Shown: positions 10,713 through 53,536 of the stretch, one piece after another
Numbering within the stretch: the first letter of the stretch is position 1
How the letters are laid out: the number at the start of each line of letters is the position of its first letter
NCBI GenBank assembly: GCA_050250645.1
Contig: JBFWOG010000001.1
Span: 335,274-399,273 of the forward strand
DNA from: Vicinamibacterales bacterium
GTDB taxonomy: Bacteria; Acidobacteriota; Vicinamibacteria; Vicinamibacterales; UBA2999
Length of the DNA stretch: 64,000 bases
Direction of reading: 5' to 3'
The notes under the pieces: model-generated
Databases searched by the model: none
The model's input: only the letters and a program-made list of their open reading frames with translations
Told to the model about the DNA's origin: nothing
Made by a program: the position numbers and the translations under genes

Positions 10713-11750
10713 TTATACGGCCAGGTCCGCCACGACGGCGTCGTGGAAGGCGCGGCGCAGCGCCTGGATGCCCTCGCCCGCCCGCGTCGGATGGACGCGG
10801 TTGGTGAGCAGCACGACGTAGAGGTCCTGCTCGGGGTCGATCCAGACCGACGTCCCGGTGAACCCGGTGTGCCCGATGGCGGCTGGCGAGAGGCGCGTGC
10901 CGCACGACGAGGTGGGCAGCATCGTGTCCCAGCCGAGGGCGCGCGAGCTGCCTGGCACCAGCGATCGCCGGAGGAACCGCTCCGTCAGGGGATCGGGGCG
11001 GCGCGCCAGCTCCAGCCACCACCGCGCGGCGAGGCCCGTCGCCGCGGCCGTCCCGAAGAGGCCGGCGTGGGCGGCGACGCCGCCGAGCGCCCACGCATTC
11101 TCGTCGTGCACCTCGCCCGTGAGCAGGCGCGCCCGCCACGGGTCGTCCTCGGTGGCGGCGGTGCGGGGCCGCCAGGCGTCCGGGCAGCCGTAGCGGACCT
11201 CGCGGTCCTCGCCGATCGTGCGCGCGCGCCACGCGTCGAACTGCCGATCGAGGGGCGCGCCGCCGGCGTCCTCGAGGACGAACCCGAGGAGCATGAAGCC
11301 CAGGTCCGAGTACACCGAGGCCGACCGCGGCGCGTAATCGAGGGGCTCCACGCAGATGGCGCCCTCGAAGGCCGGCCGCGCGCGAAGCGTGAGGTAGTAC
11401 GGGCGGTGCGCGGGGAGTCCCGAGGCGTGCGCGAGGAGATCGGCCACCGTGACGGCGCGCCGGTCCGCGCCGGACCAGCCCGGGATGAGGCTCGCGACGG
11501 GCGCGTCGAGGTCGAGCCGGCCCGCCCCCGCCAGCTCGCGGGCGATCGCCGTCGTCGCGAGCACCTTCGTGAGCGACGCCAGGTCGAAGACCGTGTCGGC
11601 CGCCGCGCGCGGCGCGCCACGGGTGGCGGCCAGGTGGCCGGCGGCGTGGGTCCAGACCGGCCCGGCCGAGCGGCCGACCTCCGCCGTGGCGGCGCTGGCC
11701 ACCCCGTCGGCGAGCGCCCGGTCGATCAGCGTCGCGGCGCCAGCACGCAT
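10713..11750 (-). CDS. Serine hydrolase, beta-lactamase/PBP-like family
   Basis: SxxK motif (FDLASLTKVLATT) and YSD motif (SVYSDLGF). I place the start at the ATG giving MRAGAATLIDRAL (11750). The longer ORF to 12026 overlaps the upstream transporter gene. Confidence 0.8.
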   Translation of the reverse strand: MRAGAATLIDRALADGVASAATAEVGRSAGPVWTHAAGHLAATRGAPRAAADTVFDLASLTKVLATTAIARELAGAGRLDLDAPVASLIPGWSGADRRAVTVADLLAHASGLPAHRPYYLTLRARPAFEGAICVEPLDYAPRSASVYSDLGFMLLGFVLEDAGGAPLDRQFDAWRARTIGEDREVRYGCPDAWRPRTAATEDDPWRARLLTGEVHDENAWALGGVAAHAGLFGTAAATGLAARWWLELARRPDPLTERFLRRSLVPGSSRALGWDTMLPTSSCGTRLSPAAIGHTGFTGTSVWIDPEQDLYVVLLTNRVHPTRAGEGIQALRRAFHDAVVADLAV

Positions 11751-13153
11751 GTGATCCACGCCACGCCGCAGGTGGTGGCGGCCCCGATGAAGACGTACCA
11801 GGTCCACGCGACGTCGGTCCAGCCCCAGACGACGGTCATCGTCGCGAGGCCGGCGGCCATGCCGGCGAGGGCGTCGCGGCTCGTCACGCGCGGGACGAGC
11901 GTGCCGAGCAGGAACGCGCCGAGGACCGCGCCGGACGCGAACGACAGCACGGCGAGTCCCGCGTCGAGGACGGAGCGGTCCATCAGTTGCGCGGCGAGCG
12001 CGACGCCCACCTGTGCGACGCCCCACCCGATGGTCGCCAGCCGCGAGACGCGCATCTCGGTCGCCGGGTCAGCGCCGGGCCGCACGTACGGCAGGTAGAA
12101 GTCCTTCACCGTCGTCGCCGCCATCGCGTTCAGCGAAGGGGACAGGGCCGCCGCGACGATGGCGGCCACGATGAAGCCGGCCGGGCCGTGCGAGAGGGAC
12201 GTCACGACGAACAGCGGCAGGATCTCGTCGGTGCGCCCGAGCGGCGCGGGGAGCGGCGTGTGCTGGTAGTAGACGAAGAGCATCACGCCGATCAGGAGGA
12301 ACACGATGAACTGGGCGAAGACGATGACGCCGCTGAGCACGAGGCCGCGCGACGCCTCGCGCGCGTTGCGGGCCGAGAGCAGGCGCTGCACGAGGAACTG
12401 GTCGGTGCCGTGCGTGGCGAGCGTGAGCGCGATGCCGCCGATCACCCCGGCCCAGAGCGTGTAGACGCGGGACGGGTCGAGCGAGAGGTCGAGGACCGCG
12501 AACTTGCCGGCCGCCGCGCCGGCGGTGATCACCTCGTGCCAGCCGCCGGGAATCCGCTGGAGCAGGGCGGCCGCCACCGCGGCGGCGCCCGCGATGTAGA
12601 CGAACATCTGGATCACGTCCGTCCAGATCACGGCGGCGGCGCCGCCGCGGACGGTGTAGACGATCATCGCGGCGCCGAGCACCACGACGACCCAGCTCAC
12701 GGGCACCTGGGTCACGACGGCGATGACGAGCGCCGTGGCGAAGAGCCTGACCCCGTCGGCGAGCGTGCGGGTGACCAGGAAGATGCCGGCCGAGAGGGCC
12801 GTCACCGGCCCGCCGAACCGCCGGGTCAGCAGCTCGTACGACGTGTAGAGTTCCCCGCGGAAGTACGCAGGGATGAAGAGGACGCTCACGAGCAGCCGGC
12901 CCAGCACGTAGCCGAGCGCCAGCTGCAGGAACGTCATGTCACCCGCGTACGCGGCCGCCGGGATGCCGATGAAGGTCAGCGTGCTCGTCTCGGTCGCGAC
13001 GATGGTGAAGCAGATCGCCCACCACGGCACCGAGTGGCCGGTGAGGAAGTAGTCGCGGGTCGTCTTCTGGAACCGGCCGAACCAGGAGCCGAAGGCGGTG
13101 ATGGCGGCCAGGTAGCCGCCGATGACCAGGTAGTCCGCCCAGCTCAGGACCAT
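11726..13153 (-). CDS. Sodium:solute symporter (SSS) family transporter
   Basis: 475 aa polytopic protein. DYFLTGHSVPWWAICFTIVATETSTLTFIGIPAAAY is the SSS signature. Confidence 0.85.
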   Translation of the reverse strand: MVLSWADYLVIGGYLAAITAFGSWFGRFQKTTRDYFLTGHSVPWWAICFTIVATETSTLTFIGIPAAAYAGDMTFLQLALGYVLGRLLVSVLFIPAYFRGELYTSYELLTRRFGGPVTALSAGIFLVTRTLADGVRLFATALVIAVVTQVPVSWVVVVLGAAMIVYTVRGGAAAVIWTDVIQMFVYIAGAAAVAAALLQRIPGGWHEVITAGAAAGKFAVLDLSLDPSRVYTLWAGVIGGIALTLATHGTDQFLVQRLLSARNAREASRGLVLSGVIVFAQFIVFLLIGVMLFVYYQHTPLPAPLGRTDEILPLFVVTSLSHGPAGFIVAAIVAAALSPSLNAMAATTVKDFYLPYVRPGADPATEMRVSRLATIGWGVAQVGVALAAQLMDRSVLDAGLAVLSFASGAVLGAFLLGTLVPRVTSRDALAGMAAGLATMTVVWGWTDVAWTWYVFIGAATTCGVAWITCVLAPRR

Positions 13154-17440: not shown

Positions 17441-17530
17441 CCGTATCCCTTCCCGTATCTGTGTAATCTGTGTCATCTGTGGCTCCTGTGGCTCCTGTGG
17501 CTCCTCTGGCATCTCTGGCATCCGTGGCCC
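17441..17530. repeat. Tandem 9-bp-unit repeat tract (element A), single arm with no inverted partner nearby
   Basis: CCGTATC x2, ATCTGTGT(A/C) x2, CTGTGGCTC x3, CTCTGGCAT x2, ending CATCCGTGGCC. It resembles the right arm of element E (44034-44098). Confidence 0.8.
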
Positions 17531-19248: not shown

Positions 19249-19333
19249 GGAATCAAGAATCAAGAAGTAAGAATCAAGAAACGAAGACCGGTGAACAGCA
19301 TTTCTTGATTCTTGATTCTAGATTCTTGATTCC
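19249..19333. repeat. AT-rich long hairpin of AAGAATC heptamer units (element B)
   Basis: Arms are GGAATCAAGAATCAAGAAGTAAGAATCAAGAAA (19249-19281) and TTTCTTGATTCTTGATTCTAGATTCTTGATTCC (19301-19333). About 30 of 33 positions are complementary, with a 19-nt loop. It lies between convergent genes. Confidence 0.85.
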
Positions 19334-24053: not shown

Positions 24054-24225
24054 CAAATCTCAGATTGCAGATTGAAGATTGCAGATTGAGACGGCCTCGG
24101 AACGCGGGCACCGGGCGATGCTGTCAATCCGGCCGTTCCAGGGGGCTGGCCCACTGACCGACCCCGCGCGCATTCGAGTGAGGGCCCCGCAATCTTCAAT
24201 CTGAGATCTGCAATCTTACATCTTG
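24054..24225. repeat. Inverted heptamer-repeat arms enclosing a ~98-bp GC-rich insert (element C)
   Basis: Left arm is CAAATCTCAGATTGCAGATTGAAGATTGCAGATTGAG (24054-24090). Right arm is GCAATCTTCAATCTGAGATCTGCAATCTTACATCTTG (24189-24225). The right arm contains the TAA stop and last codons of the downstream-strand gene. Confidence 0.8.
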
Positions 24226-33052: not shown

Positions 33053-33487
33053 ATGGGCAGCGTGAACAAGGTGATTCTGGTGGGCAACCTCGGGCGCGAC
33101 GCGGAAGTGCGCGTGACCCCCTCTGGCGCGTCGGTCGCCAGCTTCAGCATCGCGACCACCGAGAACTGGACGTCGAAGGACGGCGAGAAGCACGAGCAGA
33201 CCGAGTGGCACCGCATCGTGCTCTGGGGCCGCAGCGCCGAGGCCCTGCAGCCGTACCTGACCAAGGGCAAGCAGATCTACGTGGAGGGCCGCCTCCAGAC
33301 CCGCCAGTGGGAGAAGGACGGCCAGAAGCACTACACCACCGAGATCAAGTCCGACCGGATCGTCCTGCTCGGCGGCGGCGGCGGCCGCGGCGGCGGCGAC
33401 CGCCAGCTCGATCGCGGCGACCAGGGCGGCTACGGCGACCCGATGAAGGAAGCCTCGCCCATCACGGACGACGATATTCCATTTTAG
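33053..33487 (+). CDS. ssb: Single-stranded DNA-binding protein
   Basis: OB fold [20 protein letters not shown]...[10 protein letters not shown], Gly-rich tail and the canonical C-terminal DDDIPF. Confidence 0.95.
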
Positions 33488-33724
33488 ATTTCAGATCTCA
33501 GATCTCAGATTGCGAGGGAGGCGTATTGGTGCGCTCCTGAAACAGAGTGCAGTCGGGGATCGACTCGATCGAAAAGGGGGACCACGCGGGAGGCGGCAGC
33601 CTCTTCCGGGGTCCCCTTTTCGATGTACGCCTGGTCGCTGGCCGCGTCACCCGGGCAATGGGCGGAAATCCCGGCGCGGCGTCCCAATCTGAGATCTGAA
33701 ATCTGAGATCTGAAATCCGAGATG
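33484..33724. repeat. Inverted heptamer-repeat arms enclosing a ~167-bp insert (element D)
   Basis: Left arm is TTAGATTTCAGATCTCAGATCTCAGATTGCGAG (33484-33516, includes the ssb TAG). Right arm is CCAATCTGAGATCTGAAATCTGAGATCTGAAATCCGAGATG (33684-33724), ending 5 bp before the cupin gene stop. Confidence 0.85.
33568..33624. terminator. Bidirectional intrinsic terminator between ssb and the cupin gene
   Basis: ATCGAAAAGGGGGACC...GGGGTCCCCTTTTCGAT. This is a long, nearly continuous GC-rich stem with an A-run on one side and a T-run on the other, so either strand reads as stem plus U-tract. Confidence 0.7.
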
Positions 33725-41304: not shown

Positions 41305-43377
41305 TCACTCGACCCGCGTCCCCGGGCACTTGCCTCCGCCCTTCGTTTGCGTGCGCGTCTCCTCGTTGCCGTCGATGAGAATCCTATCCGAGCCCCTGAA
41401 GAAGGTCAAGGTTCGGCCCGTCGTTTCGCGGCATTCCTCGACGAGCGACACGGGCGATCCGGACAGCTGGTAGCGCGCCTCGTCCGGCTCGTACACCATC
41501 GTCGTGCCGGTCGCCTCGCGGCCGTCGACCTTCATGCGCACCGCGTCCTTCGCGTCGAGCCGCGCGACCGCGTTGGAGGTCGGCGCCAGCGTCACCTGGA
41601 TGCGGCCGGCGCTCAGCTCGCCGTCGGGCCCGTTGAGCTGCGCGGACGTCTCGTACACGGCCCGCCGCGCCCCGTGGTCGTAGGCGAACGTCGCGCCTCG
41701 CCCGATGGTCGGCTTCGGCCGCGCGCCGTCGTCGCCGGGCTCGCCGAAGAGGAGCGCCGTGATCACCTTGCCGGACGCGGACAGGTCGCCCGCCTGGTCG
41801 TCCATGGTGATCGTCTCCGCCTGGATGGACGTGTCGCCCTGCCAGAGCCGCGCGTCGCCCTCGCAGACGATCCTGCCGCCGTCCTCCTCGAAGACCAGCG
41901 ACTTCGCGATCACGTTGATCGCCTGCCCGGCCGCGAGGAGGGTCGGCGCGCCGCCCGCGTCACGGGCGCCGGGCTGCAGGACGGTCCGCACGGTGCCCCG
42001 CGCCTCGAGCCGGCGCGGGTCGAGGGTGATGTCGATGGCCTCCGCGTCGATCCGCACGCGCGCGTCCTCGACGTGCGGCGGCGTCGCGCCGCCCGCGAGC
42101 GCGAGCGTGCCGTCGGCGACCGCGTAGACCGCGTCGGCGCTCGTCGCCCGCATCGGCCCGTCGGCGAAGCGGAAGTCGCCGGCGAAGCGCGCCTCGCCGA
42201 GCGCCCCGCCCGTGCCCGACAGCGCCACGTCGAGCCGGTTCGCCCGCGCGACGCGCGTGGCGCCGCCCGACGCCTCGCGGAACTCGACCGCCCCGTCGAA
42301 GCGCATGGCCGTCAGCCCCGCCCCCGCCTCACCCGTGCCCGCCAGCTCGCGCGCCCGGATCGTGCGCGCCGGCGCGCCCCCGGCCGCCGGGAGCGTCACC
42401 TCCACCTGGTCGCGGCTCGCGAGCGCGGTGACCGCGCCGTCGGGCGCCAGCACGACGTCGATCCACTCGGCGCCGAGCTGCTGCCCCCCGCCGCCGGCCG
42501 CCCCCGCCAGGTCGATCGCCGCGCCGCCGGCCAGCGTGGCCTGGCGCAGCGTCCGGCCGTCCTCCGCGTACGCGAGCGTGATGTCGCGCGCCTGCATCGC
42601 GCGCAGGGAGCCCACGCCGGCCGCCCCGGCGATGCGCGAGTTGCCCTTCAGCTCGATCCGCTCGGGCTCGTCGCGATCCGGCAGGAGGTGGACGGTGGCC
42701 TCGTCGGCATCCACCACCTGCCCGTCGCGCTCGAGGTGCACGTCGCCCTCGAAGCGCATGTAGCGGTCCTGGCGGGCGAAGCCGGCGGTGCGCGCGGAGA
42801 CCGACAGGCCCCCGCCCTCCTCGTCACCGGCCATTTGGATGACGGCCTGGTCGAGCAGCCACAGCGTGTCGCGCTGGCGGTCGTAGGTGAAGCCGACGCC
42901 CGACCCCGAGAGCCGGCCGCTGTCGAAGGTGATGGCCGACGGGGCGCGGACGATGCCCTCCGCGTCGACGTAGTGCGCCTCGCTGGTCTGGGCGACGAGG
43001 CCGTCGCTCGCCGTCAGCGTGACATTGCCTTCGAGGTCGATGTTGCTCTGGTTGGGGCCGATCTGCCCCTCGTCGCCGGTGATGGTGAACGTCCGCCCGG
43101 CGCGGTTGTCGATCGTGGCCTTGAGCCCCTTCAGCCGGTTCTGGCCATCGTCGTACGTGACCTGCCCGGCGAACTCGATGCGCACGTCGCGCTCGGCGCC
43201 CTTCAGCTGGATGATGTCCCCGCCGCGGGTCTCGGCGATCGCCCGCGGATCGAGCCGCGCCACGGGCTCGGCCGGCGCCGGCGCCTGCCGCTCGCCGATC
43301 GCGAAGTACAGGGCGGCCGCGAAGCCCAGGGCAAAGATGCCCACCCCCACCCGCGCGCGACGCTGCCAGGACGCCAT
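41305..43377 (-). CDS. Large membrane-anchored LptC/LptA (OstA)-like protein with several tandem beta-jellyroll-like modules
   Basis: About 690 aa from MASWQRRARVGVGIFALGFAAALYFAI (TM anchor as in LptC). It has repeated ...GNVTLT... / ...A(D/E)xxxY... segments and an LptA-like C-terminus (ATGTTMVYEPDEARYQLSGSPVSL). It abuts the lptB start. The domain count was judged by eye only. Confidence 0.6.
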   Translation of the reverse strand: MASWQRRARVGVGIFALGFAAALYFAIGERQAPAPAEPVARLDPRAIAETRGGDIIQLKGAERDVRIEFAGQVTYDDGQNRLKGLKATIDNRAGRTFTITGDEGQIGPNQSNIDLEGNVTLTASDGLVAQTSEAHYVDAEGIVRAPSAITFDSGRLSGSGVGFTYDRQRDTLWLLDQAVIQMAGDEEGGGLSVSARTAGFARQDRYMRFEGDVHLERDGQVVDADEATVHLLPDRDEPERIELKGNSRIAGAAGVGSLRAMQARDITLAYAEDGRTLRQATLAGGAAIDLAGAAGGGGQQLGAEWIDVVLAPDGAVTALASRDQVEVTLPAAGGAPARTIRARELAGTGEAGAGLTAMRFDGAVEFREASGGATRVARANRLDVALSGTGGALGEARFAGDFRFADGPMRATSADAVYAVADGTLALAGGATPPHVEDARVRIDAEAIDITLDPRRLEARGTVRTVLQPGARDAGGAPTLLAAGQAINVIAKSLVFEEDGGRIVCEGDARLWQGDTSIQAETITMDDQAGDLSASGKVITALLFGEPGDDGARPKPTIGRGATFAYDHGARRAVYETSAQLNGPDGELSAGRIQVTLAPTSNAVARLDAKDAVRMKVDGREATGTTMVYEPDEARYQLSGSPVSLVEECRETTGRTLTFFRGSDRILIDGNEETRTQTKGGGKCPGTRVE

Positions 43378-43397
43378 GGCAACGATTGTACCAGTAA

Positions 43398-44098
43398 CGC
43401 AGATGCACAGATGGGGCCGGAGATGCGCAGATTGACTTGAAGGGACGCCCCCGGCCTGGAATCGACTACGCAAGGCAGAATCTGCACTGGCACCCACGCA
43501 TGAGTACGCAGGAACCGCACAGGCCATTCCCGGAGTGGGAAACAACAGGCCTATTCTGTCGCGGCTTGGCGCTTGCGTCTGTCTCCCGTCGATGTTGCGA
43601 TCCGACGACCTCGGTGACCGGCGGACCTACGCGATCATTGGCGCAGCAATGGAGGTGCACGGGACCCTGGGCAGGGGGTTGCTGGAGGAGCACTATCGCC
43701 AGGCGCTGGCAATCGAGCTCGGGCTGAGGAAGATACCGTTCGAGCGGGAAGTTGGGTGCCCCGTGTCGTACAAGGGCGTCCGACTGGGAGGGACGGCGAG
43801 GATGGACTTCGTCTGTTTCGATGCGGTCGTCGTCGAGGTCAAGGCGCGAGCCATCGTTGGCCCCGCCGAGCGCGCCCAGTTGCTCAACTACCTCTCATCG
43901 AGCGGCCTTCTCTGCGGCCTGCTCCTCAACTTCGGGACGCCACGGCTCGACTACCACCGGCTGATCGGCCCCTCGGTGTCCCGCCTTCCGTGACCGAAGA
44001 GAGCCACTGTGCCCTGGCTGGAGCCGACCCAGTCCATCTGTGCATCTGTGCTCATCTGCGCATCTGTGTCTATCTGCGTTCATCCTCTGCCTTCATCC
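43398..44098. mobile_element. IVS-like cassette (element E): inverted CAGATG-type repeat arms flanking a ~600-bp insert with a GxxExxY ORF
   Basis: Left arm is CGCAGATGCACAGATGGGGCCGGAGATGCGCAGATTGA (43398-43435). Right arm is CCATCTGTGCATCTGTGCTCATCTGCGCATCTGTGTCTATCTGCGTTCATCCTCTGCCTTCATCC (44034-44098). The cargo ORF is on the strand opposite to all neighbours. Mobility is inferred, not shown. Confidence 0.55.
43592..43993 (+). CDS. GxxExxY family protein (PD-(D/E)XK nuclease-like fold)
   Basis: 133 aa from MLRSDDLGDRRTYAIIGAAMEVHGTLGRGLLEEHYRQAL. It has a G-LL-E-EH-Y motif and a D...EVK motif (MDFVCFDAVVVEVKA). The ORF track start (GTG 43535) adds a non-homologous leader. Confidence 0.75.
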   Translation: MLRSDDLGDRRTYAIIGAAMEVHGTLGRGLLEEHYRQALAIELGLRKIPFEREVGCPVSYKGVRLGGTARMDFVCFDAVVVEVKARAIVGPAERAQLLNYLSSSGLLCGLLLNFGTPRLDYHRLIGPSVSRLP

Positions 44099-45810
44099 GT
44101 GCCCCGGAAGTCCTCCACGCGCAGCTCGACGTATCGGTTGCCCTGCCACTCGTTCTCCTCGAGCGTGTAGGCCAGTTCCACGCCCGCCTTGCGGGCGGCG
44201 AGGGCGTCCTCGCGCTCGGCGGCGTTCCAGGCGACGGCGCGGAAGGTGCGCTTGTCCTGGCGGAAGCTCATCTTGAGGTGGCGGTCCTTCAGCCGGCGCG
44301 GGCCGTCGACGACCTCCACCGGGCTGGCGTGGAAGACGGGCCGCGGGTTGCCGGCCCCGAAGGGGGCGAGGGTGTTCAACTCGGCGACCATCTGCGGCGT
44401 GATGTCGGCGAAGCCGAGCGGGCCGTCCAGCCAGAGCCGCGGGCGCAGGTCGTCGGGGCCGAGCCGCTCTTCCGCGTACTCGTTGACCGCCTGCCGGAAC
44501 TCGCGGATCCGCGCCGCCTCGATCTGCAGGCCGGCCGCCTGCTTGTGGCCGCCGAAGCGCAGCATGAGGGGCGCCGCGCTCTCGAGCGCGGCCAGCATGT
44601 CGAAGCCGGGGATGCTGCGGCACGACCCGTGCGCGACGCCGTCCTCGATCGACAGCACGATCGTCGGCCGGTAGAAGGCGTCCACGATCTTCGACGCGAC
44701 GATGCCGATGACCCCGCGGTGCCAGCCCTCCCCCGCCACCACCAGGACGCTCCGCGAGCCGACCTCGGGGTCCGACTCGATCGCCTTCCTGGCCTTCTGG
44801 ACGATGTCCGCCTCCTCGGCCCGGCGGCGCGTGTTCTCGGTGTCGAGCTGCTCGGCGAGCGCGCGCGCCTCGGCCGCCATCGACTCGTCGCTGGCCAGCA
44901 GCAGCCGCATCGCGATGTCCGGCGTGCTCATCCGTCCCGCGGCGTTCATGCGCGGCGCCACCATGAAGGCGATGTGGTAGCTGTCGATCGCCTTGCCGGT
45001 CAGGCCCGACACCTCGAGCAGCGAGCGCAGCCCCACCTTGTGGGGACCCTTCGTCAGCATGCCCAGCCCGAGCTTGGCGATCACGCGGTTCTCGCCGACG
45101 AGCGGGACGACGTCGGCCAGGGTGCCGATGGCGGCGATCTTGACGAAGGCGGGCAGCCACGCGTCGCGGCCCGCGCGGCCGCAGAGCGCCTGCACGAGCT
45201 TCAGCGCGACGCCGACCCCCGCCAGGTTCTTGTCCGGGTACGGGCAGTCGTGCCGCTTCGGGTTCACGACGGCCAGGGCCGCGGGCAGCGTCTCGTCCGG
45301 CTCGTGGTGGTCGGTGATGATCAGGTCGAGCCCGATGGCGCGGGCCCGGGCGGCGGCCTCGGCGCCGCGGATGCCGCAGTCGACCGAGACCACGACGCGC
45401 ACGCCCTCGGCGTGCAGGCGCTCGAGCGTCTCGGGCTGCAGGCCGTACCCGTCCTTGAGCCGGTCCGGGATGAAGTGGACGACGTTGCCGCCGAGCAGCT
45501 CGAGCGCGCGCCGGAGGATGACGGTGGACGTGATGCCGTCGACGTCGTAGTCGCCGTGGACCGCGATGCGCTCCCCGCGCGCGATGGCCGCCTCGAGCCG
45601 CTCGACGGCCACCGCCATGTCGGTCAGGCGCATCGGGTCGAGCAGGTGCGCGAGCGAGGGGTGCAGGAAGCGCTCGGCCTCGTCCGGGTCCGCGAGCCCG
45701 CGAATCGCCAGCAGGCGCGCCACCGCCGGCGTCAGCCCCGCCGCCCGCGCCAGGCGCACCGCTCCCGCATCGTCGCAGGCATGGGTGCTCCAGATTTTCG
45801 GGGGCCTCAT
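44080..45810 (-). CDS. recJ: Single-stranded-DNA-specific exonuclease RecJ
   Basis: 576 aa. DHH motifs (VHGDYDVDGITS, ITDHHEP) and DHHA1 GGHKQAAG. Confidence 0.9.
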   Translation of the reverse strand: MRPPKIWSTHACDDAGAVRLARAAGLTPAVARLLAIRGLADPDEAERFLHPSLAHLLDPMRLTDMAVAVERLEAAIARGERIAVHGDYDVDGITSTVILRRALELLGGNVVHFIPDRLKDGYGLQPETLERLHAEGVRVVVSVDCGIRGAEAAARARAIGLDLIITDHHEPDETLPAALAVVNPKRHDCPYPDKNLAGVGVALKLVQALCGRAGRDAWLPAFVKIAAIGTLADVVPLVGENRVIAKLGLGMLTKGPHKVGLRSLLEVSGLTGKAIDSYHIAFMVAPRMNAAGRMSTPDIAMRLLLASDESMAAEARALAEQLDTENTRRRAEEADIVQKARKAIESDPEVGSRSVLVVAGEGWHRGVIGIVASKIVDAFYRPTIVLSIEDGVAHGSCRSIPGFDMLAALESAAPLMLRFGGHKQAAGLQIEAARIREFRQAVNEYAEERLGPDDLRPRLWLDGPLGFADITPQMVAELNTLAPFGAGNPRPVFHASPVEVVDGPRRLKDRHLKMSFRQDKRTFRAVAWNAAEREDALAARKAGVELAYTLEENEWQGNRYVELRVEDFRGTDEGRG

Positions 45811-45823
45811 TGGGGGGATTACT

Positions 45824-45903
45824 GAGAAATCAAGAATTTAGAATCAAGAATCAAGAAAACAGGGGCAGATTCTAAATTCTTGATTCTTGATTCTTGATTA
45901 CTC
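45824..45903. repeat. AT-rich long hairpin of AAGAATC heptamer units (element F), same unit as element B
   Basis: Arms are GAGAAATCAAGAATTTAGAATCAAGAATCAAGAAAAC (45824-45860) and ATTCTAAATTCTTGATTCTTGATTCTTGATTACTC (45869-45903), with an 8-nt loop. It lies between the accA stop and the recJ start. Confidence 0.85.
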
Positions 45904-53398: not shown

Positions 53399-53536
53399 GG
53401 GACTCGTCGCTCTCGCGACTCGCCGGGACTCGCCGCTACGCGGCTCGCTCGGACTCGGCTTTCGCCTCGCTGGGATCCCAGCGAGCGCAGCGAGTCCTAG
53501 CGAGCGAGCGAGTCCTAGCGAGCGCAGCGAGTCCTA
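53399..53536. repeat. GC-rich long imperfect palindrome of GGACTCGC / GCGAGTCC units (element G)
   Basis: The left half has GGGACTCGTCGCTCTCGCGACTCGCCGGGACTCGCC...GGACTCGG. The centre is CTGGGATCCCAG (53470-53481). The right half is CAGCGAGCGCAGCGAGTCCTAGCGAGCGAGCGAGTCCTAGCGAGCGCAGCGAGTCCTA. It lies between convergent genes, and the right end includes the aminotransferase stop codon. Confidence 0.75.

Follow-up and report, generated by a model that had tools for sequence, protein, structure and literature searches.

A block of about 700 bp in the genome of a Vicinamibacterales bacterium (Acidobacteriota), at positions 43397-44103 of a 64,000-nt stretch of contig JBFWOG010000001.1 (hereafter the window), holds a gene for a GxxExxY protein between two inverted arrays of short tandem units, which we call its arms. 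We propose, with moderate confidence, that this block is a selfish mini-cassette, consisting of a PD-(D/E)XK nuclease gene and two inverted arrays of clade-typed units (CRCAGATG here), and that the gene product would act on the arms. Comparison of homologous loci indicates that the cassette with its arms is the unit of inheritance, sporadically acquired and tolerated at gene ends. As far as we could find, GxxExxY cassettes with unit arrays are widespread and apparently undescribed: a full-text literature search returned no paper describing the arms or containing arm sequences, and no Rfam, PADLOC or PHROGs family covers the element. We regard it as a variant relating to intervening sequences (IVSs), to repetitive extragenic palindromes and their associated tyrosine transposases (REP/RAYT systems) and to miniature inverted-repeat transposable elements (MITEs).

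A predicted nuclease gene between inverted arms

The first-pass annotation of the window had described a GxxExxY / PD-(D/E)XK open reading frame (ORF) standing alone between the minus-strand recJ and lptC-lptB-rpoN units, bracketed by inverted arms of which the right one supplied the end of recJ. It had taken the whole as an inserted block and expected homologous genes elsewhere to be flanked in the same way. The results given here and in the next two sections bear out these points.

Profile searches matched the 133-amino-acid ORF to PF13366 (PDDEXK_3; E 9.9e-34, 116.6 bits against a cut-off of 22) and to TIGR04256 (GxxExxY; E 3.3e-36, 124.2 bits against a cut-off of 35). The motif residues are G29-L-L-E32-E-H-Y35 and D72...E82-V-K84. 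In an alignment of 34 homologs, G29, E32, E42, E82, K84, Q96 and Y100 were invariant, and Y35 and D72 were kept in at least 90%; because E82 and K84 never vary and D72 is so widely conserved, the PD-(D/E)XK catalytic set is intact in the window protein. An AlphaFold model (pLDDT 87.7) shows the expected alpha/beta core of this fold, and its best Foldseek matches, all weak (E ~6e-4), were Cas4 SSO0001, lambda exonuclease, MGME1 and a tRNA-splicing endonuclease. A sequence search of the PDB found no related solved structure. In Pfam, the ORF matched PF13366 only, with neither PF05635 nor a HUH/Y1 (IS200-like) transposase among the hits, while the anti-phage defence models of PADLOC gave only a weak Cas4b match (E 1.5e-3) and the phage gene families of PHROGs gave none.

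The ratio of nonsynonymous to synonymous substitution rates (dN/dS) was 0.21 between the window ORF and its ortholog in the sister species L174, and 0.10-0.13 among three orthologs at another site, values that are to be read with dS near 1 and hence saturated. Ratios of 0.1-0.2 indicate that the protein is kept under purifying selection. The G+C content at third codon positions is 0.84, versus 0.9-0.98 in the neighbouring genes, and an alternative GTG start is possible at 43535. GxxExxY (TIGR04256 / PF13366) is a very large family of no known function: two database searches returned 3,762 hits at E ≤1e-5 and 7,684 at E ≤1e-20, the one classification found lists its function as 'Unknown' (PMC3424549), and our full-text search met GxxExxY or PF13366 only as incidental mentions.

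The left arm reads ACGCAGATGCACAGATGG...GAGATGCGCAGATTGA, and the right arm, whose units are listed in Table 1, can also be written CCATCTGTGCATCTGTG CTCATCTGCG CATCTGTG TCTATCTGCG. A repeat finder paired the two arms over stretches of 15 nt (100% complementarity), 17 nt (88%) and 12 nt (100%). The 14-mer CATCTGYGCATCTG occurs three times in the window, always within the arms, where 0.02 copies are expected. The arm-arm duplex has a predicted energy of -58.9 kcal/mol, as against -27.4 +/- 4.2 for 1,000 shuffles of the right arm (z = -7.5), and a 25-nt scan of all 64 kb found that the cognate site alone pairs that well with the left arm. The arms also pair in the minimum-energy and centroid folds of 43390-44105 on either strand. 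Taken as a whole, the 716-nt fold was no more stable than shuffled sequence (z -0.9 and -0.2). This value is uninformative because 600 nt of GC-rich coding sequence dominates the fold, and the arm-arm duplex test was used in its place.

Gene calls on the identical public contig (L001) give the order hprK-hpf-rpoN-lptB-lptC, ORF, recJ-accA-dnaE. The ORF occupies a 700-bp gap alone, antisense to both of its minus-strand neighbours, an lptC/lptA-like gene starting at 43377 and recJ, whose stop codon lies at 44080-44082. The block has 64% G+C in a window of 72%. A promoter and terminator scan detected no consensus promoter or terminator in the cassette, and Rfam returned no relevant family in the block, the whole window or 80 GxxExxY loci, and no rRNA in the window. 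An alignment of the leaders from five Vicinamibacterales cassettes revealed a weakly conserved block before the start codon (Table 1).

Insertion at the end of recJ

A RecJ scan with one genome per species gave about 40 Vicinamibacterales loci with the order accA-recJ-lptC-lptB, and the recJ-lptC spacer was measurable in 33 of these relatives. The spacer is at most 100 bp long in 24 of the 33 and at most 260 bp in 31, and a PF13366 gene is present in none. RecJ ends in VEDFR in the closest relatives and in VEDFRGTDEGRG in the window, where the stop codon has been replaced and the frame runs on for seven codons (GTDEGRG) into degenerate arm-like repeats; the repeat finder placed these 13-nt repeats at 44073-44098, adjoining the last canonical unit. 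On the other side, the conserved CTGGTACAAT box directly adjoins the left arm in the window and lies a few nucleotides before the lptC start in most close relatives. From these comparisons the block is an insertion at the end of recJ. No target-site duplication is evident at the window site.

The sister species L174 carries the cassette at the same place and in the same orientation (RecJ C-terminus 87% and ORF 71% identical), with its RecJ reading 23 codons into the arms; the cassette is therefore older than the split of the two species. A further relative, L087 (RecJ 79% identical), has a GxxExxY cassette between the recJ stop and the CTGGTACAAT box, on the recJ strand. Identity between its protein and that of the window is 64%, against 66-73% with proteins at other sites, so the two occupants of the spacer are not closest relatives, and the L087 copy, in the opposite orientation, is best read as an independent acquisition. 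Orientation also differs between orthologous cassettes at an FG-GAP/amidase site, where the ORF is flipped in L085 relative to L088/L090 (proteins 77-82% identical). The accA-recJ spacer holds another GxxExxY clade, in one sublineage only (L024, L022, a truncated copy in L036, and the orthologs P0123, P0133 and P0134).

Other material has also entered the recJ-lptC spacer. Unrelated insertions of 3.1 kb (L009, 11705-14860) and 1.1 kb (L037, 11711-12770) suggest that this spacer tolerates or attracts insertions. As a separate observation, in many Vicinamibacterales a gap of only ~6-10 nt separates the CTGGTACAAT box from the start codon of lptC, and the box resembles an extended -10 element; so near the start, it would imply a leaderless or very-short-leader lptC mRNA.

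Arms and gene recur together at unrelated loci

All five Vicinamibacterales homologs at other loci carry (GGGCC)GCAGATGAC-type units upstream and their complement downstream; the unit type and polarity of the window's left arm thus recur upstream of homologous ORFs elsewhere. A metagenome scan added 80 further loci, encoding proteins 50-62% identical to the window protein. Over 82 non-redundant loci, the forward unit [ACG][AG]CAGAT has a density of 8.2/kb upstream and its complement one of 6.3/kb downstream, versus 0.67 and 0.46/kb in the far flanks (>400 nt away). Complete flanks were available for 70 loci: two or more (ATCC)RCAGAT-type units stand upstream in 55 of them, one or more complements stand downstream in 49, and two loci have neither. 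The inverted-repeat score of the flanks was at least 30 at 24 of 52 loci, a value reached by only one of 135 control intervals displaced by 1.3-2 kb (Fisher p = 8e-15).

The compact form of the cassette reads ATCC-RCAGATTN-CRCAGATTN-CRCAGATTA, followed by 20-30 nt, the ORF, and a stop codon fused to TCTGYGNAATCTGYGGAT. At the termini the consensus is (A/G)TCC-RCAGAT; past the ATCC/GGAT terminus, complementarity drops to the background level, which allows the cassette ends to be defined. For most loci this also led us to reject insertion into pre-existing palindromes, in which the repeat would extend into locus-specific flanks. The survey as a whole shows that, from locus to locus and from phylum to phylum, the arms are inherited with the gene.

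Three further observations concern these loci. The coding sequences themselves contain the reverse unit ATCTG[CT][CGT], at about one copy per ORF (2.9/kb in 82 ORFs versus 0.5/kb in far flanks). At L101, L102, L104 and L105, arms of CAGATGA units surround a conserved ~110-nt non-coding loop directly upstream of the GxxExxY ORF, with no 3' arm; the loop might represent a small RNA or what is left of a cassette. In a single case, an Acido-Lenti-1 RNA (RF01687, 40.8 bits versus a gathering threshold of 37) lies ~270 nt upstream of a GxxExxY cassette (L122, 2692-2736, minus strand).

The repeat unit follows the protein clade

A second protein clade, represented by L024 (clade B; 42% identical to the window protein, with the 7,684 database hits given above), has different arms. 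Its units are GCNGAGGAC / CGGAGGAC, of the (T)CACC-CGGAGGAC type, or CACAGAGA, at different loci in metagenome-assembled genomes (MAGs) attributed to Acidobacteriota, Planctomycetota and Chloroflexota. The arm reads CACC-GCAGAGGAC-GCCGAGGTC-ACAGAGG in L024 and GTCACC-GCCGAGGAC-GCCAAGGAC-GCCGAGG in L179. A Paludisphaera MAG contains, at an unrelated locus, a perfect 35-nt repeat, TTCACC-ACGGAGGAC-TCGGAGGAC-ACGGAGGGGAA, and an Anaerolineae MAG has CACAGAGA-unit hairpins on both sides of the ORF. P0123, P0133 and P0134 are close to the L024 protein but stand, as orthologs, at its own accA-recJ site, and so do not count as independent arm evidence; such evidence for clade B came from L181 and L183.

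Distant homologs have other repeats again: CGCGGAT in Gemmatirosa, GGATT in Persicobacter and a 24-nt inverted repeat in plasmid pTS1 of Treponema saccharophilum. On contigs from a viral collection, the units around GxxExxY homologs were AATGAAAC, CCAGATGAA, AACGGAATA, CGCAGAAA and ACACGAA. Across these loci the type of repeat unit is seen to follow the GxxExxY protein clade. This clade-specific repeat architecture around the gene offers a directly testable hypothesis on the target of a GxxExxY protein.

PF05635 cassettes and 23S rRNA intervening sequences

The IVSs in the 23S rRNA genes of Coxiella and Leptospira are ~430 nt long, with a 28-bp terminal stem around a small ORF, and are cut by RNase III; their ORFs belong to S23p / PF05635, and their origin is still described as unclear (PMC4990558). 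The window element resembles them in being an element of ~430-750 nt whose small ORF of unknown function lies within terminal inverted repeats that form a long stem, and in its sporadic distribution, which suggests horizontal acquisition (PMC4990558). It differs in its site, the recJ-lptC intergenic spacer instead of a 23S rRNA helix, in its ORF, which is PF13366 and not S23p / PF05635, and in its arms, which are arrays of 8-nt units of conserved sequence.

The likeness to IVSs drawn in the first-pass annotation is nevertheless apt, in that PF05635 cassettes of identical design occur in the same bacterial order, although the Coxiella and Leptospira ORFs themselves are not GxxExxY. The annotation also mentioned GxxExxY ORFs as reported in comparable contexts; none of the 80 GxxExxY loci surveyed here lies inside an rRNA gene. 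All seven PF05635-like ORFs in the DNA analysed are flanked by inverted tandem-unit arrays (Table 1), and such cassettes also stand in intergenic spacers of the same order and genomes as GxxExxY. Their units differ from those of the GxxExxY cassettes. The shared architecture links GxxExxY cassettes to the PF05635 genes of rRNA intervening sequences. In the literature we found PF05635 described in rRNA insertions and as genes inside cas operons, with no description of flanking arrays.

One comparison bears on the origin of ORF-less hairpins. L072 equals the PF05635 cassette of L010 minus a clean 321-bp internal deletion, with the arms and a 124-nt loop remaining. The two stand at an orthologous site, and the pair shows that hairpins with short loops can derive from ORF cassettes of the PF05635 type.

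Further PF05635-type units were noted around recJ. In L010, a solo AATCACCC array follows the recJ stop (~11711-11790), and the same unit forms the arms of the PF05635 cassette (1920-2526) 10 kb away, which places a single unit type at several loci within this genome. In one clade the accA-recJ spacer contains orthologous hairpins of CCAGTT units (L006 9845-9979, L010 9910-9983, L014 5341-5474, L027 and L072 9632-9698); in relatives without this hairpin the accA stop overlaps the recJ start (ATGA). ATGAG stands on both sides of the hairpin in L006, L010 and L072 and may be a 5-bp target duplication.

How the cassette may work, and what else the arms may be

In the scheme that we favour, the cassette would have entered at the recJ stop codon in the ancestor that the window species shares with L174, and would have been kept since under purifying selection, most relatives being without it. 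The arms would be the sites where the encoded nuclease acts, either as transposon-like ends or as sites of homing-type cleavage and homology, by analogy with RAYT genes flanked by REP. Since the arms are palindromic, either orientation of the cassette could result. Once transcribed, they could close a ~45-bp stem around the ORF, as in 23S IVSs, and this stem may make insertion tolerable inside operons. Sequence-specific recognition is favoured because the unit is conserved and clade-specific, and action of GxxExxY on the flanking arrays because the nuclease is the sole co-inherited protein. The role of the arms as DNA ends and their role as an RNA stem are not mutually exclusive.

Several points weigh against this scheme. 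The tie between protein and unit is so far one of association in sequence. The 25 compact cassettes lack a consistent flanking target-site duplication, which leaves classical cut-and-paste transposition unsupported, and stable inheritance in at least two lineages suggests that the cassette is not very mobile. The PF05635 cassettes share the architecture but encode no nuclease, so the arms may have a role independent of the cargo. Architectures also vary, from arm-ORF-arm (f-ORF-r) to hairpin-ORF, hairpin-ORF-arm and hairpin-ORF-hairpin. Finally, AGAT-type arrays are frequent in the window (four in 64 kb) and rare in most other Vicinamibacterales loci, and a genome-wide dispersal of the REP kind would be hypothetical.

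The main rival, to which we give a clearly lower probability, places the function of the arms in RNA. On this account the element is IVS-like: the arms form a double-stranded stem, RNase III or the stem itself cuts, insulates or stabilises the cassette RNA, the protein is cargo, and spread occurs by recombination or horizontal transfer. The layout of the Coxiella and Leptospira 23S IVSs, with their RNase III-cut stem around a small ORF (PMC4990558), argues for it, as do the nuclease-free PF05635 cassettes, which have the same design and stand between genes in the same genomes, and the pairing of the arms in folds of both strands. Compact cassettes moreover fit the translation unit tightly, from a 5' arm 20-30 nt before the start to a stop fused to the 3' arm, and the upstream neighbour is co-oriented with the ORF at 43 of 56 loci (strand calls being crude), which suggests read-through expression. 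Yet the arm mismatches show no bias towards G:U wobble (28 sense-compatible, 31 antisense-compatible and 64 transversions), and a pure stem would not need a unit sequence that is conserved across loci and follows the clade. The window ORF, besides, is antisense to both neighbours, the rarest arrangement in the survey (2 of 35, on the same crude strand calls), and no Rfam family matches.

It is unlikely that the arms are native 3'-end elements, such as terminators or mRNA stabilisers, in whose loop an ORF has lodged with no specific tie between arm and gene. Hairpins of this general kind are certainly common: a scan of 884 kb of DNA from Vicinamibacterales gave ~45 pairs of inverted tandem arrays, mostly with loops of 4-125 nt, every hairpin in the window adjoins a stop codon, and ORF-less arrays occupy the recJ-lptC spacer of L010, L012, L013, L028 and L039. 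However, homologous ORFs have the same units and ends around them even where the loci are unrelated and the phyla differ, the unit varies from one protein clade to the next, and PF05635 and GxxExxY cassettes have different units. An invertible switch, in which the arms would be recombination sites flipping the ORF segment as in phase variation, would fit the differing orientations at two sites (window versus L087, L085 versus L088/L090) but is highly improbable, given that the window gene calls include no recombinase gene near the cassette, that no outward promoter is evident and that the oppositely oriented recJ-lptC proteins are not each other's closest relatives.

The selfish mini-cassette thus remains our preferred explanation of the block. 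A broader and more tentative proposal is that GxxExxY proteins are the nucleases of an unrecognised class of selfish elements, each clade recognising its own 7-9-nt unit, which would stand in inverted arrays at the ends of the cassette and also in hairpins without an ORF, and that, together with the PF05635 cassettes, these elements might be the free-living source of 23S IVSs. For annotation, the cassettes would explain small genes interrupting conserved operons, C-terminal extensions of neighbouring genes (RecJ here) and short tandem-repeat arrays at the ends of Acidobacteriota genes.

Comparison with known systems

REP sequences, their hairpin-forming doublets (REPINs) and RAYTs offer a parallel in organisation: a short repeat stands in inverted copies on both sides of a small nuclease gene, its type goes with the protein clade, and ORF-less hairpin doublets of similar design lie in intergenic positions next to gene ends. 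RAYT is a HUH/Y1 transposase, whereas the cassette enzyme has a PD-(D/E)XK fold, and one REP of ~35 nt stands in place of the tandem arrays of 7-9-nt units. Besides the cassette, the window has three further AGAT-type arrays, with few in other Vicinamibacterales loci.

Like insertion sequences and MITEs, the cassette is bounded by terminal inverted repeats whose ends are defined and is present in some relatives and absent from others; for the PF05635 type only (L010 versus L072), there is also an internal-deletion derivative that keeps its ends. It differs in showing no target-site duplication in the cassettes compared and in having no recognised transposase family, in an element of ~450-700 bp. 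Free-standing homing endonuclease genes are similar as small nuclease genes sporadically present between housekeeping genes, in either orientation. They are normally not bracketed by inverted repeat arrays. The short tandemly repeated repetitive (STRR) sequences of cyanobacteria are likewise intergenic arrays of tandem 7-nt units, in another phylum and with other units. STRR heptanucleotide repeats have also been reported inside a structural RNA helix, and we know of no association of STRRs with a gene that they flank.

Other hairpins and arrays

Table 1. Coordinates of the cassette, of other arrays in the window and of PF05635 cassettes at other loci
Feature	Position	Strand	Description
Conserved CTGGTACAAT box	43384..43393	-	Promoter -10-like, upstream of lptC; host-side boundary of the insertion
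Left (5') arm	43397..43436	no strand	CRCAGATG-type 8-nt units ACGCAGATG CACAGATGG ... GAGATGCG CAGATTGA
5' leader of ORF	43437..43591	+	~155 nt; weakly conserved TTGCGTCTG block just before the start codon
GxxExxY protein gene (PF13366 / TIGR04256)	43592..43993	+	133 aa; predicted minimal PD-(D/E)XK nuclease fold
3' trailer	43994..44033	+	From ORF stop to right arm
Right (3') arm	44034..44079	no strand	Units CCATCTGTG CATCTGTG CTCATCTGCG CATCTGTG TCTATCTGCG; reverse complement of left-arm units
recJ stop codon and seven extra C-terminal codons	44080..44103	-	GTDEGRG and stop; degenerate arm-like 13-nt repeats
Solo array	17457..17528	no strand	3'-arm-type units TATCTGTG TAATCTGTG TCATCTGTG, then GCTCCTGTG x3; no inverted partner nearby
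ORF-less hairpin D	24061..24216	no strand	CAGATTG x4, 100-nt loop, GCAATCT x4; adjoins a stop codon
ORF-less hairpin	33481..33723	no strand	AGAT(C/T)TC units, 175-nt loop; between convergent genes, each arm adjoining a stop codon
Hairpins with GAATCAA / TTCTTGA units	19250-19332 and 45828-45899		~4.4 copies per arm; loops of 21 and 10 nt
PF05635 cassette	L006/L010		Arms ATTGGGTG x13 and AATCACCC x9
PF05635 cassette	L090		Arms CAGTTT x10 and AAACTG x9
PF05635 cassette	L036		Arms GTCCTTG and AGGACCA; truncated ORF
PF05635 cassette	L027		Truncated ORF
PF05635 cassette	L052		Kiritimatiellales
PF05635 cassettes	L080 9381-9854, L059 9441-9839		Flavobacteriaceae; CAAGTT-unit arms, immediately upstream of recJ

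Tandem-repeat and pair scans found four inverted arrays in the window besides the cassette, which the first-pass annotation had labelled E. Three loci (17457, 24062-24223 and 33486-33711) have arrays of three AGAT-type units, a pattern seen in none of 200 shuffles; the cassette was left out of this count because its arm spacing falls outside the pattern. The hairpins with GAATCAA units have 29-35% G+C in a 72% G+C genome, one standing between convergent genes, the other in the accA-recJ spacer. That two loci have this unit in common points to a dispersed family of repeats separate from the AGAT arrays.

The first-pass annotation had placed hairpins C, D and H in one family with the cassette, as possibly empty or decayed copies of it. 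Of these, D shares the AGAT core with the cassette, as does the hairpin at 33481-33723, whereas C and H use a different unit, GAATCAA. A scan for PF13366 or PF05635 remnants in the loops of C, D, H and the 33481-33723 hairpin found none, with the L072 positive control alone scoring; derivation of these four from a cassette is therefore unproven, although the L010-L072 pair documents such decay for a PF05635 cassette. ORF-less hairpins of the same design do exist, and one of them, to judge from that pair, arose from a PF05635 cassette by internal deletion.

Two further elements have a related layout. At L018 (18490-19118) an ORF-less hairpin of ~630 bp has AGAACGA / CGTTCTT outer units and nested inner arrays of the GGAACGAC type in both arms. 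In the window, a GC-rich palindrome of tandem units at 53399-53536 separates two convergent genes; it is centred on GGGATCCC and built, on the same design principle, of long units of 19-25 nt, GCGAGCGCAGCGAGTCCTA among them.

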